A stretch of DNA of 64,000 bases. It comes from a virus. The stretch lies in the IMG/VR virus record IMGVR_UViG_3300005529_000004, positions 25,260 through 89,259 of that record. One strand, 5' to 3'. This document shows, in pieces, positions 2,587-50,360 of the stretch (position 1 is the first letter of the stretch; each line of letters starts with the position of its first letter). The notes under the pieces are model-generated. The model saw nothing but the letters and a program-made list of their open reading frames with translations, ran no database searches and was not told where the DNA came from. The translations under genes were made by a program, and so were the position numbers.

Positions 2587-3326
2587 TACGAGGGCAGGTC
2601 GTGGCCCTTCAGCTTGAACATGACCCGGTGCCCACGGAAGTCGAACAGGTACGGGTCGGTCCGAGCGATGACTCCCTCGGGCACGGCGTTGCCGGTGCCC
2701 TCGGCGGCCGAGACGTCGCTGGTCAGCATCGACCGCACCAGCTCCTCCACCTCGGCGGTGGACGCATCGACCGCGAGCACGGGCGCCGTGTCGATGTCGA
2801 GCTGCGCCGCGACGGTCACGACGTCGTCCCAGGTCCTCCACAGAGGCTTGGAGTACTCGTCCCCGTTCGTGACCCGGAAGGTCGCGACGTCGAACGCGCG
2901 GAAGCTCTTGTGGCTGGCGTAGTCGCCTCCGCCCTTCTGGATGCCAGGTCCGTAGCCCTCGCCGAACACGATCATGGCCAGCTCGCCGATGCCCGATCCG
3001 TCTCCGTCGCCGGTGATGTCCGACAGACCGGAGGCGAGCTTGTTGGCCAGGCTGTCCTGCGACCAGTACGGGCTGCCGTCGTCTCCGAACGCGGAGTCCG
3101 CGAAGTCGCCCGGCAGGTTGGCCTTGTCGGTGCGGCCGCGAATGTCCACGTGCGGGTAGCCGTTGTCCCAGGTCAGGATCAGCCGGATGTTCATGCCGTC
3201 GATCTTCTCGGTCACGTGCCAGCGATCGACCTGCAGGAAGTCGGGCCGCTTCGCGACACCGACGACCAGCTTGTGCGTCTCGTCGTCGCGGACGTAGAGG
3301 TTCTCGATCGACGGGTAGCTGAGCAT
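2586..3326 (-). CDS. RNA ligase, Rnl2-like nucleotidyltransferase
   Basis: Motif I TEKIDGMN, then FGEGYGPGIQKGG, FRAFDV, EGVIAR, FKLK. Confidence 0.8.
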   Translation of the reverse strand: MLSYPSIENLYVRDDETHKLVVGVAKRPDFLQVDRWHVTEKIDGMNIRLILTWDNGYPHVDIRGRTDKANLPGDFADSAFGDDGSPYWSQDSLANKLASGLSDITGDGDGSGIGELAMIVFGEGYGPGIQKGGGDYASHKSFRAFDVATFRVTNGDEYSKPLWRTWDDVVTVAAQLDIDTAPVLAVDASTAEVEELVRSMLTSDVSAAEGTGNAVPEGVIARTDPYLFDFRGHRVMFKLKGHDLPS

Positions 3327-3445
3327 CAGCCCGCCTCCACCAGGATCGACACCACGCACGCCACGATGCCGAGGATGACTCCGGCGTTGCCGAAGCCGGT
3401 GAACGCGGCAACCGTGAACGGCACGAGGAAGATTGCAAACAGCAT
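3326..3445 (-). CDS. Small hydrophobic membrane protein
   Basis: MLFAIFLVPFTVAAFTGFGNAGVILGIVACVVSILVEAG; GGAGG RBS; coupled to the ligase start. Confidence 0.55.
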   Translation of the reverse strand: MLFAIFLVPFTVAAFTGFGNAGVILGIVACVVSILVEAG

Positions 3446-3514
3446 GTCCCACCTCCCCAACCTAGACTTTGAACTACCTCCCGCGCCGAACATTACCACG
3501 AGGGCAGGAAGAGC

Positions 3515-9865: not shown

Positions 9866-11284
9866 TCACTCGCCGAGCGGTCCAGGGCTGAAGTCGTGGC
9901 CCTCCTCGGGCTGCGCCTCGGCCTGCTCGCCGTAGCCCGCCTGCTCCCGCTCCGCCCGGTAGCGCGGGTAGCGCTGGCGGATGACGTCGGCGTAGCGCGG
10001 GTCCAGCTCGACCACGAACGCGCGCCGATCGGTCAGGTCGGCCGCGATCAGGGTGGAGCCGCTGCCCGCGAACGGGTCGAAGACCACGTCGCCTGGCACC
10101 GAGCTGTTCTCGATCGCCTGCGTGATCAGCTCGACGGGCTTCATGGTCGGATGCTCGCGGCTCGCACTTGGCGCGTCCACCTCGATGACCGAGGTGCAGT
10201 TGTCCGGGCCGAACCACCGCGTCGGAACCTCGCCGGAACGGTTTGCCGCGCTGTTCTCCATCTGGCTGATGCGGCCGGTCCGACGTCCAGGCGTGTAACC
10301 GTAGTAGACCGCTTCATGCCGCAGGTGGTAGTCCGAGTGCCCGAGGATCATCCGCTGCTTGACCCAGACGAGCATCTGGAAGTAGCGCCACGGCGTCTCC
10401 AGGTTCTCGAACGAGGTAATGAAGACGCCGCCGTTGCGATCGGTCGGGCCTGCGACGTAGAACGGCGCCGACTCCTGCATGATCGTCGCGCAGGCAGTCC
10501 AGGCATCGCGCAGCAAGGCACGCAGGCCAGCCTGGTCGCGGGCGTCGTTCTGGATCGTCATCGCGTTGCCCTCGACCTTGCCGACGTAGTCCACGCCGTA
10601 GGGCGGGTCGGTCCACATCATCGTGGCCTTGCCGCCTTCACCGAGCATCGCCTCGATGCCGGTCTTCAGCGCGTCGGCGTTCGTGGCATCGCCGCAGAAC
10701 AGCAGGTGCCGCATCGGGTCCTCGGCCGGGCCGATCCAGTGGAACGAGTTGGGCGGAGTCTCGGGCGTCTCCGGCAGCTCGGGCGCGTCGTTCGTGCCGG
10801 GGATGCTGGACTCGATCCGCGACTCCATGTCCTGGAGCGACCAGCCATGCTCGGCTGCCTGGCCCAGCCAGTACTCCGCCTTCTCCGCTCCGTAGCGTCG
10901 GACACGGCTGAAGTGCGAGAAGCTGACGCCGGGATGTCCTTCGAACCGCGTCATGTGCCGAGCGCGCTGCTCGTGCGGGAAGAACGCCGACACCGCCGCG
11001 TAGACCTTGACCGTCTTCTGGTCGAGGCCACCGATCGGGCTGGGCCGGTCGATCCACTCCCGGTACTCGCGCGGGAAGTGCGCCTTGTAGAAGTTCGCGA
11101 TGTCGCCGATCGCGAAGCACGTCGCGTCGGTGATGGCGCCGAGACCTTCCGCGAGGCTCAGCAGCTCCTGCTCGGATGCACCGGGCGCGAGCTGCAGACC
11201 AACCGTCGTCATGCGGGCGTGCTCGGAGAGCGCGACTCCCTGCCCGCCGAAGACGGCAATCTCAGTGCTGCTCAAGTATCCCAC
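9866..11284 (-). CDS. DNA amino-methyltransferase (N6-A/N4-C, beta-type order) with N-terminal accessory domain
   Basis: WTDPPYG precedes HPTMKP and FDPFAGSGSTLIAA. Confidence 0.9.
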   Translation of the reverse strand: MGYLSSTEIAVFGGQGVALSEHARMTTVGLQLAPGASEQELLSLAEGLGAITDATCFAIGDIANFYKAHFPREYREWIDRPSPIGGLDQKTVKVYAAVSAFFPHEQRARHMTRFEGHPGVSFSHFSRVRRYGAEKAEYWLGQAAEHGWSLQDMESRIESSIPGTNDAPELPETPETPPNSFHWIGPAEDPMRHLLFCGDATNADALKTGIEAMLGEGGKATMMWTDPPYGVDYVGKVEGNAMTIQNDARDQAGLRALLRDAWTACATIMQESAPFYVAGPTDRNGGVFITSFENLETPWRYFQMLVWVKQRMILGHSDYHLRHEAVYYGYTPGRRTGRISQMENSAANRSGEVPTRWFGPDNCTSVIEVDAPSASREHPTMKPVELITQAIENSSVPGDVVFDPFAGSGSTLIAADLTDRRAFVVELDPRYADVIRQRYPRYRAEREQAGYGEQAEAQPEEGHDFSPGPLGE

Positions 11285-11370
11285 CTCCTTCTATGACTCC
11301 CGCATTGTACGCGAACCGCGCCGTCTCCGCGAGCGGGGCTGCGCGTTCTCTGGCCGGTAGACTCGAACCC

Positions 11371-12837
11371 ATGAAGCCAGACGATCTCTCCGGCGTCTAC
11401 CTCGTGGAGGACGGCGACGCTGCCGCTTTCTCGTGGGGACCGGACGGCGCGCGGCACTCGTTCCGTGGCGTCGAGGACGGCGAGCGCGCACTCCGCAAGG
11501 CTGTCGCGCACGGGCTGGCGGTCGAGGAGATCGCGAAGATGTCCGAGTTCGAGCGCGCGGTAGCCCGTGAGCTGTCGGTCGGCGTCGGCGTCCGCAAGGA
11601 CACCTCGGGCGCCGTGATCATCGGCTACTTCCCCTTCGACGGCAACGGCGACGAGGACGATGCCTTCGCCAGCCAGCTCTCGCAGCTCGGCTCCGGCTCC
11701 GTCGCCGCGACCGACATCCACCTGACCCTGCTCTACCTCGGCGAGCCGGACCCCGCCTGGGACCTGGACCTGATCGCCGCGTGCGTCAAGATCGCTTGCT
11801 GCACCGCGATGCCGATCAAGGGCTGCGTCTCCGGCCTCGGCCGCTTCGTCGGTCCCGAGGATCAGGACGTCATCGTCGCGCTCGTGGACGTCCCCGAGCT
11901 GGGACGGCTGCGTCACCAGATCAAGGACCAGCTCCTCTGCTACGGCGCGCTGCCCTACACAGCGCAGTGCTTTCAGGAGGAGCACGGTTACCTGCCTCAC
12001 TTCACGATCGCGTACGTCTCCAAGAGTGCAGCATCGCCGTCGCCGCTGACCGAGGTCGTGCCCTTCACGCTCGATTCCCTGGCGCTGGCTGCCGGGCCGA
12101 AGCGTGTGCAGTTCGACTTCTCCGGCGGCTACGACGTCGCGACGAGCGATCCTGCACCGTACTACGCCGCGCGCCTGCAGAAGGAAGGGCGCGTGCTGCG
12201 CCAGGAGCACCTGGAGTGGATGGAGGACTCGATCGCGCGCATGCAGGAGATCGTGGACAGGGAGCGCCGTCGCAAGAAGCCCGGCAACCCCGAGTCGAAG
12301 GAAGACGACTCCACCGGCGACGCCGCAGCGACGGGTGGCAGCGCCGCCCAGATGTCGCGCGACGCCGATGGCACCGAGGACCTGGCCTACACCGTCACGA
12401 AGGCGCTGGAGGAGGAGCGGTTCACGCTCGGCCCGCTCTATGCGCCGGAGCGCAAGGACGCGCATGGCGAGTGGACCGACGCCGCGACGCTGCAGAAGGC
12501 TGTCTGGTCCTTCGTGGAAGAAAGTGCTGCAAATGGGCGACTTCTGAACCTGCAGCACGGCGATCACGGCACGCAGACGGTCGGCGAGTGGGTCGAGGTC
12601 ATGGCCTGGCCCTACGAGCACACGATCAAGGTCGCCACGGCTGGCGGCGAGGAGCGCGAGCTGGAGATGCCTGCGGGCACCGTCTACCTCGGCGCCAAGT
12701 GGTCGCCGGAGGCGTGGAAGCTCGTCAAGGCCGGGAAGCTCAACGGCTGGTCGCTCGGCGGCTCGGCTGTCCGTGTTGCCACCGAGGGCGACCTGCCGAT
12801 GATGGGCGATGCCAAGATTCCGGCGGCGGTACGCTAA
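11371..12837 (+). CDS. Fusion of 2H phosphoesterase and XkdF-like prohead serine protease
   Basis: HxT motifs IHLTLLYLG and PHFTIAY; C-terminal FTLGPLYAPERKDAHGEW...LNLQH...WKLVKAGKLNGWSLGG; leaderless ATG 7 nt after TAGACT. Confidence 0.8.
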   Translation: MKPDDLSGVYLVEDGDAAAFSWGPDGARHSFRGVEDGERALRKAVAHGLAVEEIAKMSEFERAVARELSVGVGVRKDTSGAVIIGYFPFDGNGDEDDAFASQLSQLGSGSVAATDIHLTLLYLGEPDPAWDLDLIAACVKIACCTAMPIKGCVSGLGRFVGPEDQDVIVALVDVPELGRLRHQIKDQLLCYGALPYTAQCFQEEHGYLPHFTIAYVSKSAASPSPLTEVVPFTLDSLALAAGPKRVQFDFSGGYDVATSDPAPYYAARLQKEGRVLRQEHLEWMEDSIARMQEIVDRERRRKKPGNPESKEDDSTGDAAATGGSAAQMSRDADGTEDLAYTVTKALEEERFTLGPLYAPERKDAHGEWTDAATLQKAVWSFVEESAANGRLLNLQHGDHGTQTVGEWVEVMAWPYEHTIKVATAGGEERELEMPAGTVYLGAKWSPEAWKLVKAGKLNGWSLGGSAVRVATEGDLPMMGDAKIPAAVR

Positions 12838-18860: not shown

Positions 18861-18884
18861 TGAACCCTGCGCTATAGTCCGCGC

Positions 18885-19979
18885 ATGGACATCTTCGACC
18901 TGATCGACCCGTTTGAGCTGGAGGAGATGATCGAGGCGGGATACGTCTCCGCGCAGCAGCATCCACTGCTGCCGCTCACGATCCTCAACTACACCCACCG
19001 CTGCCAGTATGATCGCGCCTGGAACGCGACTACGATGAAGTGCCGTGGCATCATCTACGGCACGCAGGACGGCGTCATCTATGCGCGGCCGTGGGCTAAG
19101 TTCTTCAACTACGGCGAGCCGACGCCGGAGGGCCTCGTGCTCGACCCGGATGCGCTCGTGGAGGTCACCGACAAGCTGGATGGCTCGCTGGGCATCGGCT
19201 ACTTCGACCCGACCTGGGGCGGGTTGTCGATCGCCACGCGCGGCTCCTTCACCTCCGACCAGGCTCTGCACGCATCGAAGCTCTACCAGCGCCGGTACGC
19301 GCACTGGATGCCCGAGGAGGGCTGGACGCCGCTGTTCGAGATCATCTACCCGGAGAACCGGATCGTCGTGGACTATGGCGGCGAGGACGACCTGCACATG
19401 ATCGGCCAGGTCAAGATCGAGACCGGCGAGCTGCGAGGCCCGTCGCTCGAATGGCCCGGACCGATGGCGGCGCTGCAGCAGGCGCTGACCTTCCGCGATG
19501 CGGTGGCGCTGCCCGAGCGACCCGGCAAGGAAGGCGTCGTCGTTCGGCTGCTGGAGACCGACGCGCTGGTCAAGATCAAGCAGGCCGACTACGTCGAGCT
19601 GCACCGGATCGTCACCCACCTGAATGAGCGCACGGTCTGGGAGGCGATCGTCGCCGACCGCTTCGAGGAGCTGATCGAGACGCTGCCCGACGAGTTCATG
19701 GTCTGGGCAGAGAACGTCCGACGCAACCTGCAGGCCGAGGCCGACTACATCGAGGCGCGCATCCGCGAGAAGTACGCGTCCGCGACGTCCTGGATGCAGG
19801 ACCGGCACGGCTCCGACTGGTCGCGCAAGCAGTTCGCGGAGCTGGTCACCCGGCAGCCGGAATGGGCGCCGTACATGTTCCTGCTGCTGGACGGCAAGAA
19901 CGTCCACGAGAAGATTTGGGCGTCGATCAGGCCGGAGGCGGCAAAGCCGCTGATGGACCGAGGAGAGGAGATCGCATGA
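18885..19979 (+). CDS. RNA ligase 1 (T4 Rnl1 family)
   Basis: KCRGII, KFFNYGE, VTDKLDGSLG, ATRGSFTSDQA, FEIIYPENRIVVDY, EGVVV, VKIKQADYVELHR. Confidence 0.92.
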   Translation: MDIFDLIDPFELEEMIEAGYVSAQQHPLLPLTILNYTHRCQYDRAWNATTMKCRGIIYGTQDGVIYARPWAKFFNYGEPTPEGLVLDPDALVEVTDKLDGSLGIGYFDPTWGGLSIATRGSFTSDQALHASKLYQRRYAHWMPEEGWTPLFEIIYPENRIVVDYGGEDDLHMIGQVKIETGELRGPSLEWPGPMAALQQALTFRDAVALPERPGKEGVVVRLLETDALVKIKQADYVELHRIVTHLNERTVWEAIVADRFEELIETLPDEFMVWAENVRRNLQAEADYIEARIREKYASATSWMQDRHGSDWSRKQFAELVTRQPEWAPYMFLLLDGKNVHEKIWASIRPEAAKPLMDRGEEIA

Positions 19980-20770: not shown

Positions 20771-21030
20771 GGGGCGCCGACTACATGGAGCCGCCGAGCG
20801 AGAGGCCGGTCGATCACAAGGCGGCGCTCAAGGCGGCGCAGCTCGACCACGACATCGCCGAGAAGAAGTCGCGGCTGCAGCGCAAGGCCGACCGTCGCGC
20901 TCGGCGCCGCTGCTTCTGGACGCGGCCGCGCGGCCACAACTGGGTCGGCTCGGCGCCGAGCGAGGCGAGCGACTTCCACTGTGCCAACTGCCCGGCGACC
21001 AAGACCGTGTCGGTGGACTATGGCTGGTAG
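20767..21030 (+). CDS. Small Zn-finger-like protein
   Basis: CFWTRPRGHNW...CANC. Confidence 0.55.
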   Translation: MRGADYMEPPSERPVDHKAALKAAQLDHDIAEKKSRLQRKADRRARRRCFWTRPRGHNWVGSAPSEASDFHCANCPATKTVSVDYGW

Positions 21031-21049
21031 TTCAGGTAGGGTGAGCGCA

Positions 21050-21979
21050 TTGACTCCTGAACTGATCGTCACTCGCGGCATCCCCGGCTCAGGCAAGACG
21101 ACCTGGGCGAAGGCGTGGGTCGCCGATGACCCGGTCAACCGGGCACGCATCAACCGCGACGACCTGCGGCTGATGCTCTACAACCGGGGCTACCCGCTCG
21201 ACCCAGACCCGAAGATCGCCCACCGGCTGGAGACCAACCTCTCCGCCGCGCAGCAGGAGGCGGTGCGCGGGTTGCTGGAGGCGAAGCGCTCGGTGGTCGT
21301 GGACGACACGAACATCTCCTCGCGCTACCTGCGGGCTTGGCGGGAGCTGGCGCAGGACGCCGGTGCCGACTTCTCGGTCAACGACGACTTCTGCTCCGTG
21401 CCGCTCGACCTGTGCATCGAGCGCGACCGCCACTACACGCGTGGGACAATGGTCGGCGAGGTCGCGATCCGGCAGATGCACGCGCGGCTGCAGAATGCGC
21501 TCGGCAACGAGTCGCGCGGCACCGTCTTCTACGAGGACGGCGGCTACCGCTACCAGCCCGACTTCCGCCTGCCCTCCGCCTTCCTGCTCGACCTGGACGG
21601 CACGGCGGCGCTGCACGTAGACCGCTCGCCCTACGACTACTCGCGGGTCAACACCGACGAGCCGAACCAGCCGGTCATCGACCTGGCGAAGCAGCTCGTC
21701 TCAGCGGGCTGGGTCTGCATCTGCCTCTCGGGTCGCCCGGATTCGTGCCGGGACGCGACCGAGGAGTGGCTGCGCTGGTCGGGCGTCCCCTGGCACTCGC
21801 TCTACATGCGTGAGGAGGGCGACACGCGCAAGGACGAGATCGTGAAGCTGGAGATCTTCCAGCAGATGATCGCCGACTACTGGCACGTTCGGCTGGCGCT
21901 CGATGACCGGAACCGGGTCGTCCGCATGTGGCGCCGGATCGGTCTGCTCTGCGCGCAGGTCGCGCCGGGAGCGTTCTAG
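21050..21979 (+). CDS. pseT: Polynucleotide kinase/3'-phosphatase (T4 PseT-like)
   Basis: RGIPGSGKTT, NRDDLR, VDDTN; HAD DLDGT, LSGR, DDRNRVV. Confidence 0.92.
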   Translation: MTPELIVTRGIPGSGKTTWAKAWVADDPVNRARINRDDLRLMLYNRGYPLDPDPKIAHRLETNLSAAQQEAVRGLLEAKRSVVVDDTNISSRYLRAWRELAQDAGADFSVNDDFCSVPLDLCIERDRHYTRGTMVGEVAIRQMHARLQNALGNESRGTVFYEDGGYRYQPDFRLPSAFLLDLDGTAALHVDRSPYDYSRVNTDEPNQPVIDLAKQLVSAGWVCICLSGRPDSCRDATEEWLRWSGVPWHSLYMREEGDTRKDEIVKLEIFQQMIADYWHVRLALDDRNRVVRMWRRIGLLCAQVAPGAF

Positions 21980-22677: not shown

Positions 22678-23202
22678 GTGGGATACGCGCCGGTCAGCCT
22701 CATCACGATCGGGCCGGAGCCGCCGGGGTCGGGCAGCGGAGAGCTGACCGTCACCGAGGGCGAAGGGCCGAAGTTCTCCGCCGCTCCGTGGAAGGGCCTC
22801 GTCTGGCCGACGAACGACATCCCGCAGCTCGGCGTCAATGCCTGCGAGATCGAGGTCAACAACGTCAACGGAGACGTGCTGTCCTTCGACCGCGACGACC
22901 CGACGATCGACATCCACGCCGGGCTGCAGGTCGCCGAGATTCAGGCCATCCCGCTGCACGGGATCGGTGGCTCGATCACGCTGTCTGCCGTGTTCGCTTC
23001 CGCGAGCGGACCGTACACCGCGCTCCTGCGCTCGCCGTCCGGCTCGCTGTCCTCCCCGGCGGCTGTCGATGGCGGAGCCGGGAGCGCCTGGTACGGCTTC
23101 GCGCCGAACCGCAGCGGCACCTGGGCGTTCCAGTTCGAGGACTCGCTCGGCGACCGCTCTCCCGAGCAGGAGTTCTTCGTGCCCTTCGTAGGCACGGAGT
23201 AG
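22678..23202 (+). CDS. Beta-rich putative virion protein
   Basis: Leaderless GTG; C-terminal YG.F.P...G.W.F.F Ig-like pattern. Confidence 0.55.
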   Translation: MGYAPVSLITIGPEPPGSGSGELTVTEGEGPKFSAAPWKGLVWPTNDIPQLGVNACEIEVNNVNGDVLSFDRDDPTIDIHAGLQVAEIQAIPLHGIGGSITLSAVFASASGPYTALLRSPSGSLSSPAAVDGGAGSAWYGFAPNRSGTWAFQFEDSLGDRSPEQEFFVPFVGTE

Positions 23203-23211
23203 GCTGACAGC

Positions 23212-23592
23212 ATGGGCCGCGTCCAGATTCCTGTCGCCCGCGTCACGCGCTCCGGCATCGGAGGCTCGGCGTTCGTCCAGGGCGACGACCAGAACAAGAT
23301 GTACTTCGCCAACAACGCCGGGAACACCTGGCTTCTGGCGGTCAACGACGACGCGGCCGACGCCTACGTCGGCGCCGAGTTCGCTACGCCGCAGCTCGAC
23401 ACGGTTCCGACGCCGGACCGCCTGGCCACGGTGCCCGCAGGCGGCTCGGCCTGGATCGGGACCTTCCCGCGCATGTGGTACAACCAGGACGACAACAGCG
23501 TCTGGATCAACCCCGGCACCGGCCCGGCCCATCCGACCACGCCGACCTGGGTCAACCTCTGGTTCAAGGCCTTCGACTTCCAGGACATCTAG
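23212..23592 (+). CDS. Putative virion (decoration-type) protein, paralog of 51862
   Basis: Shared GD..N....N.G...N...VPAG...G.FP...YNQ/DD pattern. Confidence 0.6.
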   Translation: MGRVQIPVARVTRSGIGGSAFVQGDDQNKMYFANNAGNTWLLAVNDDAADAYVGAEFATPQLDTVPTPDRLATVPAGGSAWIGTFPRMWYNQDDNSVWINPGTGPAHPTTPTWVNLWFKAFDFQDI

Positions 23593-24008
23593 TGGCAGAC
23601 GAGATCGTCAACGTTCGAGGATGCGCGCGCTGCGGTGGGACGCACGATGGGCTGGCGTTCAAGAGCCTCGATGCGCCGATCGTGGAGTCGGACGGCACGA
23701 TCCTCACCCACTCCGCGCCCTGCCCGAAGACGGGTCGCGCGATCCTGCTCGGGACGGCGCCGGTCGGCAAGGCGAACAGCATCCCGGCGGCGGTCAACTA
23801 TCGCCCGGCCAGCGCGCCTGGCGAGTCGTGTGCGACCTGCGCCTACTTCGACGTCGAGACCGCGCGCTGTGCCATGTTCGACGTCACCGTCTCGCCGAAG
23901 TACGTCTGCGACAAGTGGAGCGACGTCGTGAAGCGCATCGTGCGCGGAGTCGCACAGGCAACCGAGTTCAAGCTGGCGAAGCTCAGAAAGGCGGCGCGCT
24001 GTGGCTAG
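23592..24008 (+). CDS. Cys-rich protein with HiPIP-like motif
   Basis: CARCG...H; NYRPA...SCATCAYF...RCAMFDVTVSPKYVCDKW. Confidence 0.6.
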   Translation: MADEIVNVRGCARCGGTHDGLAFKSLDAPIVESDGTILTHSAPCPKTGRAILLGTAPVGKANSIPAAVNYRPASAPGESCATCAYFDVETARCAMFDVTVSPKYVCDKWSDVVKRIVRGVAQATEFKLAKLRKAARCG

Positions 24009-25044
24009 CCCTGTTCCGCATCCCCTGCCCTCGTGGTGGGACGAGGCGTGCGACTACCGCTACGGCATCCTGCCGAGCAAGCCGCGCCCGAAGGACATCC
24101 CGCACCTCACTCGCCCGCAGTACGACTGGTGCTTCGAGCAGTGGGCCGAGTTCGACGCGTGGAACACCTGGAAGGACAAGGGCGGACCGCGTCCGGCGGT
24201 CTGGCACCTCGTCCCGCTGTGGGCGTGGCGCCTGCGGCACGAGCTGCTGCACGCGCATCCGAAGCCGCCGAAGCCTCCGCCTGCTCACCCGGAGCCGGTC
24301 AGCATCTGGAAGAACCCGCCCTGGAAGGGGCGTGGCATCCACATCGCCTGGGGCTTCGAGTCGGGCGACTGGACACCGGCGCAGATTGCCGCGCGCCTGC
24401 ACAAGGCTGGCTTCTCGTGGGCCGCGCTGGAGGGCAGTCCGGCGCTGCAGAACGAGCAGTTCATGGCCGACTTCGTGGCGGCGCAGCACGAGCTGGGCAT
24501 GAAGGCGATCCTCTGGGAGCGCAGCGACGTGCAGAAGGACTACCCGGAGCCGCGCCTCGACCACGTGACCCGGCTGCTCACGACCTACGGCTTCGACGCG
24601 TATGGCGCCGACATCGAGGAGTTCCCGATCGACACGCCGGACTTCCCTACGGCCTTCGCCAACGCTCACCCGACCTTCCCTCGCGTCACGCTGTGTGCGG
24701 GCATGGCCGACGCGGTCTACTACCAGACCTGGATCGCAGCGGGCTGGGACTGCATGACCGAGGCGTACTCGGGCATGGCCGGTGTCGCGCCGGGCGTCGG
24801 GATCGCAGGCGCGATGGACAGCGACGCCTTCTGGCGCGGCTTCCCTCGCAACGCCGTCCCGAAGCCTGGTCTCTGGGGAGGCAACGGAACGGGGCCGCAC
24901 ACGTGGCCGATCATCGAAGTCAACGCCGAGAAGAACCCTGGTCTCGCTCCGCAGCTCAGCGCCGTCGCTCCCTGGGGCGACAACTACTCCATCTGGGACG
25001 CCGAGCAGATGCAGGACGCGGACTGGGCCGTCTACGGTGCTTGA
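24001..25044 (+). CDS. Putative glycoside-hydrolase-like TIM-barrel protein (possible lysin)
   Basis: Trp-rich N-domain, Pro linker, then beta/alpha repeats GIHIAW, GFSWAAL, GMKAILW, GFDAYGADIEE. Confidence 0.45.
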   Translation: MASPVPHPLPSWWDEACDYRYGILPSKPRPKDIPHLTRPQYDWCFEQWAEFDAWNTWKDKGGPRPAVWHLVPLWAWRLRHELLHAHPKPPKPPPAHPEPVSIWKNPPWKGRGIHIAWGFESGDWTPAQIAARLHKAGFSWAALEGSPALQNEQFMADFVAAQHELGMKAILWERSDVQKDYPEPRLDHVTRLLTTYGFDAYGADIEEFPIDTPDFPTAFANAHPTFPRVTLCAGMADAVYYQTWIAAGWDCMTEAYSGMAGVAPGVGIAGAMDSDAFWRGFPRNAVPKPGLWGGNGTGPHTWPIIEVNAEKNPGLAPQLSAVAPWGDNYSIWDAEQMQDADWAVYGA

Positions 25045-26086
25045 TGCGCGGCTGTTCTCCGTAGGGAAGAACGTCGTCCCGCCACCCGAGTGGCGTCCGA
25101 CCGCCGCGATCGACTTCGACGGCGTGCTGCACCACTACACCGGCGACGGCGCCACGACGCCGGTCGCGGTCGATGATCCGCCCGTCGAGGGCGCGATCGA
25201 GTGGCTGACGGCGATGCGCGAGATCTTCGACGTCGTGGTTTTCAGCTCGCGCGGCCGGGACACCGGGGACGTGCTCACGGTGCAGCGCTGGTTGGAGGCG
25301 CACGGGCACGGCGACATTCCGGTTACCGCGATCAAGCCCATCGCGCACGTCTACGTGGACGATCGGGGCTGGCGCTTCGAGGGGCCTGGTAAGTTCCCCG
25401 ACCCGCAGGTCCTGCTCAGCGCCCGTCCGTGGTGGTCGGAGGCCGACACGGGCGCGGACGCGCTCGCACGGGGCCTCTACCGCGAAGCCGTGCGGCACGA
25501 ACCGGAGACCACCGCGTTTATGGAGCAGGCGGCGCGCGCCACGGGCGGCTATCTCGGCGGGCTGGAGTTCCGCTGGAAGGACCCGACGACGCTCGCGGCC
25601 AAGATCAAGGCGGTCGCCGAGCGCGACGACTCGACCCTGGAGGACGCGGCCGGGCATGTCTACGACGCGCTCCGCTACACGCTGATCTACCCGACGATCG
25701 ACTACACGGACGGCGTTCGAGCGGCGCTCGCGGACCTGCCGCTCACGGTCCAGCGACTCCGCAACTACTGGACAGGCACGCCGGGCAGCCAGCGATTCCT
25801 GCCGGGCACCTACGTCGGAATCAACGCTGTTCTCAGAACCGACGACGGATTCCCGGTTGAGCTGCAGTTCCACACGCCGGAGGGCCGCGCCGCCAACGGC
25901 GCCAACCAGCTCCTCTACCAGATGGTCGATGACGCGTCGCTGACGCCGGAGGACGCTCAGCGAATCGGCGACGAGATGCGGGCGAACGTGGACGCCGTGC
26001 CGAGGCCCGAGGGAGTGCAGAATATAGGCGCGACCGCTAAGCTCGCCGCAGCCCTGCTCAGCGTGCCGGGGCCGACCACGCTCTGA
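25037..26086 (+). CDS. HAD-family phosphatase fused to RelA/SpoT-like nucleotidyltransferase domain
   Basis: AIDFDGVLH, FSSR, KP, YVDDRG; then EFRWKDPTTLAAKI, DALRYT, RNYW, YVGINAV, VELQFHTP. Confidence 0.75.
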   Translation: MLDARLFSVGKNVVPPPEWRPTAAIDFDGVLHHYTGDGATTPVAVDDPPVEGAIEWLTAMREIFDVVVFSSRGRDTGDVLTVQRWLEAHGHGDIPVTAIKPIAHVYVDDRGWRFEGPGKFPDPQVLLSARPWWSEADTGADALARGLYREAVRHEPETTAFMEQAARATGGYLGGLEFRWKDPTTLAAKIKAVAERDDSTLEDAAGHVYDALRYTLIYPTIDYTDGVRAALADLPLTVQRLRNYWTGTPGSQRFLPGTYVGINAVLRTDDGFPVELQFHTPEGRAANGANQLLYQMVDDASLTPEDAQRIGDEMRANVDAVPRPEGVQNIGATAKLAAALLSVPGPTTL

Positions 26087-26143: not shown

Positions 26144-26259
26144 GTCCTATACCCCGAGCTGGAAGGAGGACCCTCCGAGGCAGCCGCTAGCCGGGAAGAC
26201 CCGGACCCTAGACAGGTCGGACAAGAAACCGAGGCCCGCGCAAGCGGGCCTCCCTTCTT
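26144..26259 (+). ncRNA. Candidate small RNA with own promoter and terminator
   Basis: TTGGAT-N18-TACGCT with extended TG; GTCC/GGAC closing stem with two internal hairpins; GAGGCCCGC-gcaa-GCGGGCCTC terminator. Confidence 0.5.
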
Positions 26260-26291
26260 CCGGCACGGATGGCGCCGGTAGACTTCCTCCC

Positions 26292-26558
26292 GTGAGCATC
26301 ACGATCAACAAGGTCAACCGGGCGGACGGCACGTACGACGTGTCGGCAACCGGCGCGGACGACACGGCCCTGGCAGCGCTCAACGGCGAGGCCACCGGAC
26401 CCGGCGATGCCGGGCGCAACGACGGCGAGTTCTGCGAGCTGATCGGCACCAGCCGGTACCTCGTGACCGCCGGAGTGCTTCGGGCGCAGGGCGTCTCGGG
26501 CTTCGCCGCCCCGCAGTACACCGGCGACGCTTCGGCCTACTCCTTCAAGGGAGTCTAG
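26292..26558 (+). CDS. Small protein, paralog family A
   Basis: ITINKVNRADGTYDVSATGA...RYLVTA; leaderless after TAGACT. Confidence 0.65.
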   Translation: MSITINKVNRADGTYDVSATGADDTALAALNGEATGPGDAGRNDGEFCELIGTSRYLVTAGVLRAQGVSGFAAPQYTGDASAYSFKGV

Positions 26559-26562
26559 GCTC

Positions 26563-26766
26563 ATGCCGCAGGTGGACTACCCGGTCCTCGCGGGGTCCGC
26601 AGCCGACACCGCGCTCCAGGCGAAGACGCCGACGACCGGCGGCTTCAAGGTGCAGGTCACGAAGTCCGCGCATGCGGACGGCCTCGACACCTTCAACGAG
26701 CAGCTCATCATGAGCTACGAGCGCGCCCGCAAGCACCTCCAGGCTGGCACCGGCGAGCTGCTCTAG
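26563..26766 (+). CDS. Small hypothetical protein
   Basis: Tandem small ORF in the same operon. Confidence 0.6.
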   Translation: MPQVDYPVLAGSAADTALQAKTPTTGGFKVQVTKSAHADGLDTFNEQLIMSYERARKHLQAGTGELL

Positions 26767-26775
26767 GGACCTGGC

Positions 26776-27024
26776 ATGACGCCGTCCCTGGTCAAGTTCA
26801 ACCGGGCCGACAACACGGCTCTCGTCACCGGCGCCTACGGGGACTTCTCGGGCTACAAGCACTCGACCGACTACCCGGCGGCGCAGTACGTCTCAGCGTT
26901 CTGGGCGGACGAGGTGGACGGCGAGGCGGTCATCGAGGACGTGGACGGCTCGGTGCTGCCGGGCACGAATCCTGCCTGGGTCATCAGCCGGGCGCTCGCG
27001 GTCAACCTCGGCCTGACCAACTAG
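26776..27024 (+). CDS. Small protein, paralog family A
   Basis: PSLVKFNRADNTALVTGA...WVISRALA. Confidence 0.6.
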   Translation: MTPSLVKFNRADNTALVTGAYGDFSGYKHSTDYPAAQYVSAFWADEVDGEAVIEDVDGSVLPGTNPAWVISRALAVNLGLTN

Positions 27025-27033
27025 GCGGCGGGC

Positions 27034-27285
27034 GTGCCGATCACGCTGGTGCGGATCGACCGCACCTACAACGCGTACTGGGTCACGGCGTCGGGCGCAG
27101 AGGAGGCGCAGCTCCAGGCGATGGACGGCTACGTCGATTCGACGGCTGCGTCTGGCTCGGAGGGCATCGCGGACGGATCGAAGCAGTGGGTGGACCAGGG
27201 CAGCAACCGCTCGCTGGGATCGCAGTACCGGATCAGCCGCGCAGCGGCCGAGGCGATGGGCGTCATCGCCCCAGGCACGCCGTAG
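27034..27285 (+). CDS. Small protein, paralog family A
   Basis: ITLVRIDRTYNAYWVTASGA...YRISRAAA. Confidence 0.6.
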   Translation: MPITLVRIDRTYNAYWVTASGAEEAQLQAMDGYVDSTAASGSEGIADGSKQWVDQGSNRSLGSQYRISRAAAEAMGVIAPGTP

Positions 27286-27309: not shown

Positions 27310-28071
27310 GTGCAGCTCTGGCGGACGATCAAGCTCGGGACGACCGGCGCCGACGCGAAGGCGGCGAAGCGTGCGCTCGCGCGTGCAGGCTACGGTCCCG
27401 GCAAGCTTGCGGGCCTGACGCCGGTGTTCGGGCCATTCTCCGTGCGCTGGCTGAACCAGTGGAAGAAGACGGTCAGCCTGCCGCAGAACGGCCAGATTCA
27501 GCAGCCCGCGCTCGATGCGCTGTGGCCCTGGTTCGACGCCTACGCGCGCAAGCTCTACGCCAGCTACAAGCCTCCGGCGGTGTACGTCAACCCGTTCGCA
27601 CACTCGAAGGGCCTCGTACCCGAGCGCACCGACGACGGCGTGGACTACGGCGGCAACGCCGGGTCGCCGATCGGAGCGCTGGGGCGTTCGAAGATCATCG
27701 AGGCGACGACCGATTCGCACTGGCCGGGACCCTACGGCAACCCGTCCGGCTTCAACGGACACGGCGGGCTGATCCACGGCGTCTTCCTCGACGGCCCGAA
27801 CGCTGGTGAGGAGTGGTACCTGGCGGAGTACATCCACGTGGACTGCGGTGTGGGTGACGTCGTCCTGCCGGGCCAGCAGATTGCTCGGTTCTACCACGAC
27901 GCGAACACGGGCGTCGGTATCGAGTACGGCTTCGGGATCGGCGGCGACCACCAGTCCGCCACCGAAGCAGGTAAGGCGTGGGCGCGGCTGCTGCTCTCCA
28001 CCGGCGCTCCGGTCCGCGACGATCCGGGTCCTGGGTCGTCTCTGTCCCCGTTCGGAAAGGTGGTTCAGTAA
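27310..28071 (+). CDS. Endolysin-like: peptidoglycan-binding domain + M23-like peptidase
   Basis: IKLGTTGADAKAAKRAL...FGP PG-binding pattern; DDGVDYG...GSPIGAL...VGDVVLPGQQIA. Confidence 0.7.
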   Translation: MQLWRTIKLGTTGADAKAAKRALARAGYGPGKLAGLTPVFGPFSVRWLNQWKKTVSLPQNGQIQQPALDALWPWFDAYARKLYASYKPPAVYVNPFAHSKGLVPERTDDGVDYGGNAGSPIGALGRSKIIEATTDSHWPGPYGNPSGFNGHGGLIHGVFLDGPNAGEEWYLAEYIHVDCGVGDVVLPGQQIARFYHDANTGVGIEYGFGIGGDHQSATEAGKAWARLLLSTGAPVRDDPGPGSSLSPFGKVVQ

Positions 28072-28160
28072 TGCTCGCCGACATCACCATCTCGTTCTGG
28101 CAGCTCATCCTGGGCATCCTCGCGGTGCTGGCGATCATCTGGTTTGTGAGGCACCTCTAG
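28071..28160 (+). CDS. Single-TM micro-protein (holin-like)
   Basis: MLADITISFWQLILGILAVLAIIWFVRHL between two lysin genes. Confidence 0.5.
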   Translation: MLADITISFWQLILGILAVLAIIWFVRHL

Positions 28161-28846
28161 TGCCGTTCGCCGGGCCGCAGCTCATGCCGCGCGTCTTCGC
28201 CAAGTACGCGGCGAAGCACTGGGGAGGCATCGGCCTGATCAAGGCCGTGGCCACGGCGCACTCCGAGTCGCAGCTCTACGTCGGCGCATGGCACGACAAT
28301 CTCGACGCGAACGGCAAGGTCGTCTCGCGCGACTGCGGCATCTTCCAGATCAACATCCCGGCCTCCCAGATCGGCACGCCTGCCGAGGCAGCGCTGCGGA
28401 CCGAGAGCACCGACCCAGCCATCTGGGTCCCGGTGGTCGAGAACAGCGTCGAGGCAGCGCTGAAGCTCTACGACCAGCCCTGGACGCGCGACGGCAAGCC
28501 CGACCTCCGCAAGTGGGAGCCGTGGTACGGCTACACGCTCGGCTACGCGACCTGGGCGGAGTGGTGGGTCTTCCACCAGGAGCCTGCGCCACCGCACTGG
28601 TTCTACACCGGGAGGCACGTCCAGAAGGCCATCCCCGGCGTCGCCAACTACCACCTCCTGATCGCGGCCGACTGGTCCGGCGAGGAGGCGCTCGCCTTCG
28701 CGAAGAAGATGCAGGGTGTCTTCAGGATCGAGGGCACGCTGAAGCTGACGGACAAGGGCGTAACCTGGGGCAGCTTCCCTGCCGAGCCGACTGCACCACC
28801 GGCAGACGGTGTCGGCCCGAAGCCGACGCCGAACGACGGCGCCTAG
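28160..28846 (+). CDS. Lysozyme-like / lytic transglycosylase
   Basis: AVATAHSES catalytic Glu motif and DCGIFQIN. Confidence 0.75.
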   Translation: MPFAGPQLMPRVFAKYAAKHWGGIGLIKAVATAHSESQLYVGAWHDNLDANGKVVSRDCGIFQINIPASQIGTPAEAALRTESTDPAIWVPVVENSVEAALKLYDQPWTRDGKPDLRKWEPWYGYTLGYATWAEWWVFHQEPAPPHWFYTGRHVQKAIPGVANYHLLIAADWSGEEALAFAKKMQGVFRIEGTLKLTDKGVTWGSFPAEPTAPPADGVGPKPTPNDGA

Positions 28847-49889: not shown

Positions 49890-50360
49890 ATGACCAACAC
49901 CGACATCTACCAGGACCTGAAAGCCGAGATCGAGCGCCTGCGCGAGCTGGCCTACACCGACCGGCTTACCGGCATCGCCAACCGCGCCGCCTTCGAAGAG
50001 AAGCTCGCCGAGGTCGTCGCCGATCGGCGCACCTACACGCTGATCTACATCGACCTGGACGGGTTCAAGGCGGTCAACGATGGCCACGGGCATGAGGCCG
50101 GAGACGCGGTCCTGCAGAACGTCGCGGAGGTGCTTCGGGACAGCCTGCGCGAGGGCGACTTCCTCGCCCGGCTCGGCGGCGACGAGTTCGCGATCCTGAC
50201 TCGCGCGAAGGATGCGCCGGGTCTGGCCGAGCGGCTCGCCACGCCGGGGCTGCCCGAGGTCGGGCTGAGCGTCGGAGTCGCACGCGGGCGCGGGCGCAAG
50301 GTCCTGCGCGAGGCCGACCACCGGATGTACGAGCAGAAGGCAGCGCGCGTCGCCTGCTAA
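49890..50360 (+). CDS. Stand-alone GGDEF diguanylate cyclase
   Basis: TDRLTGIANR, IDLDGFKAVNDGHGHEAGD, I-site REGD, RLGGDEF, ADHRMYEQK. Confidence 0.92.
   Translation: MTNTDIYQDLKAEIERLRELAYTDRLTGIANRAAFEEKLAEVVADRRTYTLIYIDLDGFKAVNDGHGHEAGDAVLQNVAEVLRDSLREGDFLARLGGDEFAILTRAKDAPGLAERLATPGLPEVGLSVGVARGRGRKVLREADHRMYEQKAARVAC

Follow-up and report, generated by a model that had tools for sequence, protein, structure and literature searches.

A viral gene that fuses a cap-less HAD phosphatase domain to a RelA/SpoT-type synthetase domain: a candidate alarmone writer with a built-in eraser or editor

Why would a phage encode, in one polypeptide, both a RelA/SpoT-type pyrophosphokinase and a phosphatase of the HAD family? 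Phage-carried alarmone synthetases are a young topic and, to our knowledge, what is known to counter them, namely HD hydrolases and protein inhibitors, is encoded by separate genes. The question is raised by a gene in the 64,000-nucleotide stretch of viral DNA analyzed here (the window), in which a sequence-only reading had recognized a HAD motif set followed by the motif series of a RelA/SpoT synthetase and had proposed a single-chain writer and eraser of 3' phosphorylation. The coordinates of the gene, its domains, and the neighboring features are collected in Table 1.

Table 1. Positions in the window of the HAD-SYNTH gene, its parts, and associated features
Feature	Position	Strand	Remarks
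HAD-SYNTH gene	25037..26086	+	349 aa, one open frame, GTG start at 25037
Cap-less HAD phosphatase domain	25091..25426	+	residues ~19-130
Interdomain linker R130-P131-W132-W133	25424..25435	+	P131, W132, and W133 invariant in 12/12 (alignment A2)
RelA/SpoT-fold pyrophosphokinase (SYNTH), Apk/EAS type	25454..26041	+	residues ~140-335
Small Cys-motif gene	23598..24008	+	same gene string; no Pfam or PADLOC family
2H (LigT-like) phosphoesterase gene	11134..12837	+	PF13563, E 1.7e-10; PHROG matches
GC-rich hairpin, 9 bp, GCAA loop	26231..26252	+	145 nt 3' of the stop

Both motif sets that had been read from the translation are present. The N-terminal half carries DFDGV (D26-V30), FSSR (F69-R72), K100, and D108-D109, and the C-terminal half carries R179-x-K181...K189, D210-ALRYT, Y259-x-G261-x-N263, and E275-LQFHT, all within one intact open reading frame (ORF). 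An assembly artifact, which had been named as a possible explanation, is ruled out, because the identical ORF occurs on five contigs from three sources (JGI, ENA, and Logan) and 13 further fused homologs exist. A search restricted to proteins of 191 to 611 aa had shown the fusion as an apparent singleton, whereas the exhaustive homolog search found further fused proteins, 11 of which match the HAD and SYNTH halves in one stretch. With a 102-row alignment as input, AlphaFold2 gave a model (mean pLDDT, 88.7; pTM, 0.68) that matches both HAD folds and SYNTH folds; from the single sequence, pLDDT reached only 41.6. No Pfam model matched the 349-aa protein at E <= 10, neither RelA_SpoT nor any HAD model, and an HD hydrolase domain, looked for in the same protein by sequence and fold comparison, was not found. 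At the level of sequence and predicted structure, these data confirm a genuine single-chain fusion in which both sets of catalytic residues are intact.

To place the fusion among its relatives, 179 proteins were scanned with HMMs, which detected both domains in 13; BLASTP added one more (P0144), giving 14 fused sequences. The 13 relatives of the phage protein are cluster representatives, all metagenomic, that are 30-44% identical to it. HAD precedes SYNTH in every one of the 14, and alignment A2, which holds 12 of them at 35-42% identity, contains 40 invariant columns, including all of the catalytic ones; the RPWW linker is absent from P0144. In the tree, the SYNTH domains of the fused proteins form one clade (14 tips; support, 0.998), and the HAD-SYNTH pair is an evolutionary unit with a single origin. 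Ten of the relatives carry the pair inside proteins of 864-2038 aa that also contain 2H, MuF, zeta-kinase, or ART domains. A 2H phosphoesterase is found in 8 of these 10 long proteins, a zeta/P-loop kinase in 3, and MuF in 7 (Pfam E <= 1e-3, mostly under the cut-off), and these companions shift position or drop out while the HAD-SYNTH order stays fixed. The fused proteins showed no ligase domain.

Several effector domains linked to MuF or portal domains are the feature of polyvalent proteins, and the long relatives (P0033-P0043) have it. In the paper on these proteins (Iyer, Burroughs, Anand, de Souza, and Aravind 2017, PMC5512222), RelA/SpoT, 2H, MuF, zeta-kinase, and ART domains are named, as are solo versions in related elements; a word search of that paper found no mention of a HAD or phosphatase domain. 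The ten long fused relatives combine domains of this set. The phage gene is a two-domain solo with no carrier, which we class as a block of polyvalent proteins in its solo form.

Outside this family, megablast of 3 kb against GenBank phages gave no match. A tblastn search with the protein reached 48 phage records, none covering at least 80% of the query; among the 40 matches listed, coverage is restricted to the C half, and SYNTH matches the C-terminal part of head proteins of Streptococcus, Pasteurella, and Aggregatibacter phages. The A2 scans of sequence collections searched with patterns derived from the SYNTH motifs; of 196, 313, and 538 confirmed loci, the best 80 in each case entered the comparison. 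Both domains were found at 1 of the best 80 loci in viral contigs, at 0 of the best 80 in one genome per prokaryote species, and at 1 of the best 80 in JGI metagenomes, the last being the same contig as the viral match.

The synthetase domain is, in sequence comparison and in the predicted fold, closest to SaEAS, the exported alarmone synthetase of Streptomyces albidoflavus (Ahmad et al. 2025, PMC12691689), and then to RelP and Tas1 (Tas1/Apk1). The C half matches the SaEAS entry (PDB code 8VX3) by phmmer (E 2.7e-10), and the model matches it by Foldseek (E 1.4e-12; TM, 0.80) and by structural alignment (Z 20.6; rmsd, 2.7; 191 aligned), placing the C-terminal domain in the SYNTH fold. RelP (Z 13.6), Tas1 (13.2), CapRel (11.2), and FaRel (8.2) follow, with further matches to RelQ, Rel, SpoT, and RelA (including 1vj7, 6yxa, and 7qpr). 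The Rel/SpoT structures match the SYNTH part alone (model residues ~130-335), and the N-terminal domain has a HAD fold rather than an HD fold, as had been proposed. The C half also matches a model of the XopAD C terminus (E 1.3e-21).

D210 pairs with the active-site D121 of SaEAS (A in the crystal), and R213, N263, E275, and Q277 pair with four of the five ATP-binding residues named for SaEAS (R124, K154, N169, E182, and Q184; PMC12691689); all five of these phage residues are invariant in A2. The exception is K154, which corresponds to the invariant Y244, with R240 and R242 close by; this change suggests that the acceptor or donor site may differ from that of known enzymes. Reading the acceptor specificity from the sequence was considered and rejected, since converting the syn2-3-4 motifs leaves nucleotide specificity unchanged, according to the heading of a results section in PMC12226406. 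SaEAS carries a Sec signal peptide and stands without a partner domain, whereas the phage protein has an N-terminal HAD and no signal peptide region in the alignment.

In the HAD domain, motif I reads D26-x-D28-G-V30, and all 12 fused sequences keep D26, D28, and G29; in A2, S70 of motif II is nearly invariant and K100 of motif III and D108 and D109 of motif IV are invariant. PHROG 23773 and PHROG 1238 both match the N half (about 1e-9). Model residues 19-138 align to 2obb (Z 10.2), to the 5'(3')-deoxyribonucleotidase 6g2n (Z 8.9; a second such match is 3bwv, Z 8.5), to the T4 Pnkp phosphatase (5uj0, Z 8.3; further Pnkp/Pnkp1 phosphatase domains, Z 8.2 and 7.8), and to dozens more HADs. With T4 polynucleotide kinase/phosphatase, BT_0820 (2obb), and AfhF of phage HY126 (9iqw, Z 7.4), the domain has in common a minimal cap-less Rossmann-like HAD core, at a sequence identity of only 10-20%, and because the substrates of these enzymes differ among themselves, they do not fix the substrate here. 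HAD chemistry takes off single phosphoryl groups via an aspartyl-phosphate, and not pyrophosphate.

Relatives of the HAD domain match HAD_SAK_2, Hydrolase_6, NT5C (weakly, in P0030), and HAD-IIIA, all below the curated cut-offs. HAD_SAK_2 (PF18143) describes the HAD of "Swiss Army Knife" RNA repair proteins, which Burroughs and Aravind are said to have defined in 2016. Against its cut-off of 27.5 bits, P0003, P0004, P0008, P0022, P0029, and P0030 score 16.7-21.9 bits and P0049 scores 20.7 bits; the 349-aa protein does not match this model. Atlas neighbors of the domain include viral PNK3P and HAD_PNKP clusters, which we take as a lead only. Solo HAD relatives of ~120 aa, with no synthetase, are common in viruses, and some relatives are fused to AEP-TOTE primase-like domains.

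The phage genome contains a tyrosine integrase gene, indicating that the phage is temperate and can be a prophage. The HAD-SYNTH gene lies far from the integrase in a long same-strand block, where it is the last gene of a tightly packed five-gene string; its start shares 8 nt with the end of the upstream gene (stop at 25042-25044). Pieces that are joined in the long relatives are encoded apart here. The C-terminal ~48 aa of the Cys-motif gene correspond to the stretch lying immediately after HAD-SYNTH in the polyvalent relatives (tblastn with segments of P0036, P0037, P0038, P0041, and P0033 leads to window positions 23745-23927, E down to 1e-13). The 2H domain, which those long relatives that carry it have fused beside HAD-SYNTH and which is a separate gene in this phage, gives tblastn matches to the relatives' segments at 11650-12273, and MuF resides in a separate 1391-codon frame and is absent from the 349-aa protein. 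Rnl1-like and Pnkp-like genes lie 3-6 kb upstream of HAD-SYNTH.

In Pfam, PHROG, and PADLOC, the four genes upstream in the operon and the downstream neighbors have no family, apart from PHROG 38030, whose function is unknown, at 23212-23592 and a single weak match to PilO. The location among late genes given in the sequence-only reading therefore finds no support in these neighbors. PADLOC matched neither the HAD-SYNTH protein nor nine neighbors, and phmmer of five neighbors against the PDB gave nothing meaningful. Pfam, PDB, and PADLOC comparisons recognized no Tis1-like or HD (Aph1) gene beside HAD-SYNTH, and the four small downstream ORFs had no match in these three resources; relatives of Tis1 are too divergent for such tests to rule them out.

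Among known systems, Apk2, reportedly the subject of work by Bartoli et al. in 2023 on MuF-fused (p)ppApp synthetase toxins, invites comparison. PMC10083569 and PMC12226406 describe Apk2 proteins as toxins of this kind from temperate phages, with Tis1-like and Aph1 immunity; Aph1, encoded beside MuF-Apk2, hydrolyzes (p)ppApp and protects cells (PMC10083569). The likeness lies in the homologous synthetase branch, the temperate phage, and the presence of relatives on MuF proteins, and the known system includes an enzymatic antidote. The phage protein differs in that it has no MuF and that its hydrolase candidate is a HAD, fused in cis. Long bifunctional Rel/SpoT enzymes likewise have, in one chain, a SYNTH of common fold immediately preceded by a hydrolase-type domain; however, theirs is an HD, whereas the phage protein has an unrelated HAD and lacks TGS, ACT, or ribosome-binding regions. 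Among the papers covered, our literature search found none on a HAD-alarmone synthetase fusion and none pairing haloacid dehalogenase with alarmone synthetase, ppApp, or RelA-SpoT plus phage; such forms might already appear in Burroughs and Aravind 2016 or in the sequence lists that supplement PMC12691689.

The reading that we tentatively prefer, at somewhat under an even chance, is that the protein pyrophosphorylates purine nucleotides at the 3' position and contains its own 3'-phosphatase, by which the product is limited or edited; the chemistry of the two domains and their conserved linkage are the grounds on which it is plausible. The C domain, of the Apk/EAS branch, would be catalytically active as a RelA/SpoT-type 3'-pyrophosphokinase, moving the beta,gamma-pyrophosphate of ATP onto the 3'-OH of a purine nucleotide to give (p)ppApp and/or (p)ppGpp. 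The N domain would be a Mg-dependent cap-less HAD phosphatase that acts on the 3' phosphates of this product and either restores the ordinary nucleotide, as an "eraser" and the counterpart of the separate HD hydrolase Aph1 of MuF-Apk2 toxins, or trims the product to a 3'-monophosphate species. The alarmone burst would thereby be self-limited or edited and could reprogram the host without killing the cell that the phage needs. In related uncultured phages, the pair is found within polyvalent head proteins of the MuF type, which presumably enter the cell together with the phage DNA.

We count Aph1 in favor of this reading as a precedent for an enzymatic antidote, and the fixed HAD-then-SYNTH order, the invariant linker, and the single clade, kept while other domains shuffle, as arguments for coupled domains. 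Several points weigh on the other side. A constitutive eraser fused to a writer would run a futile ATP-consuming cycle unless their rates differ; the 2H and zeta/P-loop kinase companions fit RNA-end chemistry as well; and HAD relatives match, weakly, an RNA-repair model (HAD_SAK_2). The lack of a Pfam match to the 349-aa protein and the replacement of K154 by Y244 may also count against it, and the pTM of the model bears on how the two predicted active sites are placed relative to each other. A bolder version, which we consider doubtful, is that the HAD domain would be the first of its family to specialize in 3'-(pyro)phosphorylated nucleotides and that, with SYNTH, it makes up a minimal non-homologous analog of bifunctional Rel/SpoT, which would time a short alarmone pulse post-entry or make a 3'-monophosphate nucleotide (pppAp/ppGp type). 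If so, such a product might escape host HD and Nudix hydrolases and represent a new phage-made signal or poison.

Other explanations have to be weighed against an eraser or editor in cis. The two domains could be uncoupled effectors, with SYNTH making alarmones and the HAD acting elsewhere, for instance as a 5'/3'-nucleotidase on the nucleotide pool; in one variant, the HAD could remove the AMP by-product and so make the loss of adenylate irreversible. Polyvalent proteins do join functionally unrelated domains (PMC5512222). The proximity of the HAD fold to 5'(3')-deoxyribonucleotidases, the NT5C match, the viral solo HADs, and the AEP-TOTE fusions point the same way, but the constant domain order, the invariant PWW, and the single origin amid shuffling domains make this unlikely. 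We also regard as rather unlikely an RNA 3'-end module, in which the HAD would be a polynucleotide 3'-phosphatase and SYNTH would pyrophosphorylate an RNA 3'-OH, such as that of tRNA CCA, either to attack host translation or to heal ends after a nuclease defense. Cap-less HADs suit macromolecular substrates, and the Pnkp-type fold matches, the HAD_SAK_2 matches among relatives, the 2H and kinase companions, and the upstream Rnl1-like and Pnkp-like genes are consistent with it. So are the toxSAS enzymes known to pyrophosphorylate tRNA (CapRel, 7ztb; FaRel, 8pu1) and a Ro60/TROVE protein encoded on L007, the one related contig with context; TROVE/Ro60 is absent from the phage genome itself. However, SYNTH is much nearer to the nucleotide-acting SaEAS, RelP, and Tas1 than to CapRel and FaRel, so tRNA CCA pyrophosphorylation is less favored, the fused proteins have no detected ligase domain, and the HAD_SAK_2 scores are all under the cut-off, with none for the phage protein.

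Prophage defense by a CapRel-like fused toxin-antitoxin, the HAD restraining SYNTH until another phage triggers it, would suit the tyrosine integrase, the known CapRel-type fused toxSAS defense proteins, and the presence of CapRel among the fold matches. We consider it improbable, as PADLOC found no defense match, the family occurs mostly within MuF head proteins, which are tools of an invader, and the gene sits in its same-strand block at a distance from the integrase; moreover, the invariant catalytic residues of the HAD suggest an enzyme and not a lid. That catalysis has been lost in one domain or in both, or that the fusion is an assembly or frame artifact, could be argued from the missing Pfam match and the unconserved K154 of SaEAS. 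The artifact part is already contradicted by the recurrence of the ORF and its fused homologs, and with the invariant columns and the confident fold model added, this explanation as a whole is highly improbable.

If the conserved pairing of HAD and SYNTH in cis does act as we propose, it would represent a new class of alarmone-processing enzyme or lead to a new nucleotide product, and the compact 349-aa construct would allow the "write" and "erase/edit" steps to be split by point mutations. If the pair acts on RNA ends instead, toxSAS chemistry and the RNA repair of phages would be connected through it. The relatives further show that blocks of polyvalent head proteins can be fixed two-domain units that move between carriers and free genes, a view that helps the reading of many unannotated giant phage proteins.

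The sequence-only reading had also placed a candidate small RNA after the gene. This holds insofar as a well-folding 118-nt stretch ends in a terminator-like hairpin; no Rfam family supports it, since the region 3' of the gene gave two chance-level rows at most (at the gathering threshold and at E <= 1). The hairpin probably terminates the operon transcript or a small RNA. Farther downstream, positions 27310-28846 contain what we take, from the translations and their motifs, to be possible lysis genes.

Frame analysis and the ORF listing identified a single gene for the HAD-synthetase protein P0001 (349 aa), which begins with a GTG codon in an 8-nt overlap with the upstream gene's stop codon and is the last of a string of five closely spaced or overlapping genes. 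The virus record that carries it is 89,259 bp long, has direct terminal repeats, and is rated complete; the window covers bases 25,260 to 89,259 of this record, and GC content is ~68%. A sequence-only reading had described the product as a HAD phosphatase fused to a RelA/SpoT-like synthetase, and all of the motifs it listed are present: D26-F-D28-G-V, F69-S-S-R72, K100, and D108-D109 in the HAD half, and R179-W-K181...K189, D210-ALRYT, Y259-V-G-I-N263, and E275-LQFHT in the synthetase (SYNTH) half. That reading had also allowed that the fusion might be artefactual; the identical ORF was found on five contigs from three sources, so it cannot be the product of one faulty assembly.

Coordinates of the target gene and other features (window positions unless a genome record or contig is named)
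Feature	Location	Strand	Details
Target gene (P0001)	25037-26086	+
Gene string ending in target gene	22678-26086	+
118-nt stretch between target gene and next ORF	26145-26262	+
Strong hairpin	26231-26252
Four tandem small ORFs	26292-27285	+	88, 67, 82, and 83 aa
Small Cys-rich protein gene	23598-24008	+	C-terminal ~48 aa recurs within polyvalent phage proteins
Match to ~48-aa segment	23745-23927
Match to 2H part	11650-12273		within gene 11134-12837; PF13563, E = 1.7e-10
RNA-ligase-like gene	2586-3461	-
T4 Rnl1-like ligase gene	18864-19979	+	phrog_562, E = 4e-71
Polynucleotide kinase/phosphatase-like gene	20771-21979	+	phrog_505, E = 2e-88
GGDEF diguanylate-cyclase gene	49950-50345	+	PF00990, E = 9.7e-31
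1391-codon frame (outside window)	G000:C1:9240-13415	+	weak MuF match; C-terminal ~330-aa HExxH domain
Match to ~330-aa C-terminal domain	genome 12393-13412		E = 1e-36 to 1e-42
Tyrosine integrase (outside window)	G000:C1:15143-15643	-	PF00589, E = 1.6e-37
Ro60 orthologue gene	L007 2166-3755	+	TROVE, E = 6e-40; Ro60 vWA, E = 4e-65
1134-aa protein ending in SYNTH	L002 3211-6615	+

Pfam contained no match to P0001 at E ≤ 10, so evidence for the domains was drawn from other libraries and from structure. Among PHROG families, residues 22 to 120 matched phrog_23773 (E = 9e-10) and phrog_1238 (E = 7.6e-9), and residues 131 to 326 matched the C-terminal ends of two long families, phrog_7625 and phrog_2859, one of which is annotated as "head morphogenesis." A phmmer search of the PDB returned one entry only, 8VX3 (E = 2.7e-10, query residues 147 to 332), which is SaEAS according to the part of PMC12691689 consulted; the C-terminal end of the NCBIfam XopAD model was also matched (E = 1.3e-21). 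We built an AlphaFold2 model from a 102-row alignment (mean pLDDT, 88.7; pTM, 0.68). With residues 134 to 338 of this model, Foldseek placed 8VX3 at the top (E = 1.4e-12; TM score on target = 0.80), followed by Tas1 (6OX6), RelP, RelQ, CapRel, and Rel/SpoT, and a second, Foldseek-independent structure search gave Z scores of 20.6 for 8VX3, 13.6 for RelP, 13.2 for Tas1, 11.2 for CapRel, and 8.2 for FaRel. Residues 19 to 138 matched BT_0820 (2obb), a cap-less HAD of 121 aa (Z = 10.2), human 5'(3')-deoxyribonucleotidase (Z = 8.9), the T4 Pnkp 3'-phosphatase (Z = 8.3), MDP-1 (Z = 8.0), and AfhF of phage HY126 (Z = 7.4). An Atlas look-up with residues 16 to 136 reached small viral clusters; labels of PNK3P, HAD_PNKP, or NIF occur on a few, which we take as a lead only.

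Residues were mapped onto SaEAS from the HMMER alignment with 8VX3, in which chain index plus 35 gives the paper's numbering; the engineered L83M (index 48) and D121A (index 86) bear out this offset. D210 of P0001 aligns with SaEAS D121, the residue inactivated in 8VX3. PMC12691689, in the part consulted, names five ATP-binding residues (R124, K154, N169, E182, and Q184), and four of them have identical counterparts, namely R213, N263, E275, and Q277. The fifth, K154, aligns with Y244, which is invariant in the fused family, as are R240, R242, N243, and W245 around it. An alignment of 12 fused proteins contained 40 invariant columns. In the HAD these include D26, D28, G29, K100, D108, and D109; in the linker, P131-W132-W133; and in SYNTH, D210, R213, N263, E275, and Q277.

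A length-limited homologue search recovered only P0001 itself as a full-length match. When 1.84 billion representatives were searched exhaustively, 4487 matches at E ≤ 1e-3 were obtained; among the 150 of these that were listed, 11 proteins (P0033 to P0038 and P0040 to P0044) align over query residues ~20 to 333 in one stretch, with 37 to 44% identity. When HMMs made from the module alignment were run on 179 fetched proteins, HAD was found in 101, SYNTH in 91, and both in 13, with the query and the fragment P0039 counted among these. BLASTP added a fourteenth fused form, P0144, whose HAD is more divergent and which lacks the RPWW linker. In midpoint-rooted FastTree phylogenies, the 13 fused tips and P0144 formed one clade of the 103-tip SYNTH tree (support, 0.998); in the 99-tip HAD tree, weakly resolved on a short alignment, 12 fused tips fell under a 19-tip node (support, 0.855) together with 7 solo HADs. 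Every fused protein derives from a metagenome assembly (Logan, JGI, or ENA); NCBI has no record of any of them. Collectively, these data indicate that both catalytic domains are intact and under purifying selection and that they fused once and have since been locked in one order by a conserved linker.

The same small HAD also lies at the C terminus of ~360-aa proteins (e.g., P0008, P0011, P0012, and P0016). For nine of the 11 listed, the precomputed annotation is AEP-TOTE primase-like (PF22548), which we confirmed for P0008 only, and one Atlas cluster of this AEP-TOTE/HAD type is placed in Planctomycetota.

Ten long fused relatives (864 to 2038 aa) were scanned with Pfam. A 2H/LigT phosphoesterase was found in eight, Phage_Mu_F at E ≤ 1e-3 in seven (two exceeding the curated cut-off), a Zeta_toxin kinase in three, and an ADP-ribosyltransferase domain and DUF3626 in one each. 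The HAD-SYNTH block is N-terminal in eight and internal in two, and the order of the other domains varies. They are what Iyer et al. 2017 (PMC5512222) call "polyvalent proteins." In the part consulted, that paper lists RelA/SpoT, 2H, MuF, and zeta-kinase among the domains of the phage-type members and proposes their delivery together with DNA; searching its text for whole words brought up neither a HAD nor a phosphatase domain. P0001 is most aptly regarded as a free-standing version of a HAD-SYNTH block of phage polyvalent proteins for which we found no earlier description. L007 (identical to L171), the sole related contig with context, has a single frame for 2H-HAD-SYNTH, with a C-terminal stretch that aligns with the MuF segment of other fused relatives, and carries a Ro60 orthologue gene 3 kb upstream; no Ro60/TROVE gene was found in the window's own genome. 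On another viral contig, L002, the protein ending in a related SYNTH domain lacks a HAD and, by eye, has a P-loop (GxxGxGKS) region and a Cys motif of the kind in the small Cys-rich protein.

We ran the fused relatives by tblastn against the phage's own genome. Their 2H part matched within a gene in which PF13563 confirms the domain. A ~48-aa Cys-rich segment, directly after the block in P0037, P0038, P0041, and P0043, matched the small Cys-rich protein gene, which lies two genes upstream of the target; usually found straight after the block, with two copies in P0033, the segment resembles a small domain of polyvalent proteins that has no name yet. The ~330-aa C-terminal domain of P0038, P0042, and P0043 matched the 1391-codon frame, which also holds proline-rich and coiled-coil linkers, lacks the HAD-SYNTH block, and represents the polyvalent head protein of the phage itself. 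The two ligase-type genes and the polynucleotide kinase/phosphatase-like gene are an RNA-repair set, the integrase marks the phage as temperate, and the GGDEF gene gives it a second nucleotide-messenger synthetase.

SYNTH domains transfer the β,γ-pyrophosphate of ATP to a 3'-OH, HAD phosphatases take off single phosphoryl groups via an aspartyl-phosphate intermediate, and the substrates of cap-less PNKP-type HADs are 3' phosphates on nucleotides or nucleic acids. The HAD of P0001 may act on 3' phosphates installed by the synthetase. A Tis1-like binder counters MuF-Apk2 toxins, and in some loci the HD hydrolase Aph1 does so too (PMC10083569, consulted in part); the fused phosphatase could take Aph1's part in cis, yielding a self-limited pulse, or might instead trim the product to a 3'-monophosphate nucleotide. 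We tentatively favor a synthetase whose in-cis HAD acts on its own product, as limiter or trimmer. The earlier observation of a fusion stands, and its interpretation as a single-chain writer/eraser is partly supported. P0001 resembles a miniature Rel/SpoT, with a hydrolase-type domain and then a synthetase; however, it has no HD domain and is not a member of that family. By analogy it may also be likened to an Apk2 toxin with an enzymatic antidote, but it lacks a MuF carrier and a recognizable immunity gene and is not an Apk2 family member. In the literature searched, which excluded Burroughs & Aravind 2016 and the PMC12691689 supplements (either could contain such a pairing), no paper linked an alarmone synthetase to a HAD.

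That the domains are two uncoupled effectors, or that the HAD is a nucleotidase removing AMP, seems rather unlikely. The 2H and kinase companions in the fused relatives, weak matches of HAD relatives to HAD_SAK_2, the phage's own RNA-repair genes, and the Ro60 gene on L007 would suit an RNA 3'-end module, but the synthetase fits nucleotide-acting enzymes much more closely, and we consider this reading unlikely. A CapRel-like prophage defence protein is very improbable, and inactivity or artefact extremely so.

Downstream of the target gene, the N-terminal halves of the four small ORFs are weakly alike, and no match was found in Pfam (three ORFs), the PDB (two), or PADLOC (four). They occupy the position expected of an immunity gene; no link to Tis1 was found. 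Before them, the 118-nt stretch after the target gene has a multi-branched fold ending in the strong hairpin, which has 9 bp and is made of GC (z-score of the stretch = -3.0; none of 200 shuffles equally stable). No Rfam family matches this stretch, a candidate small RNA or structured, terminator-bearing 3' UTR.
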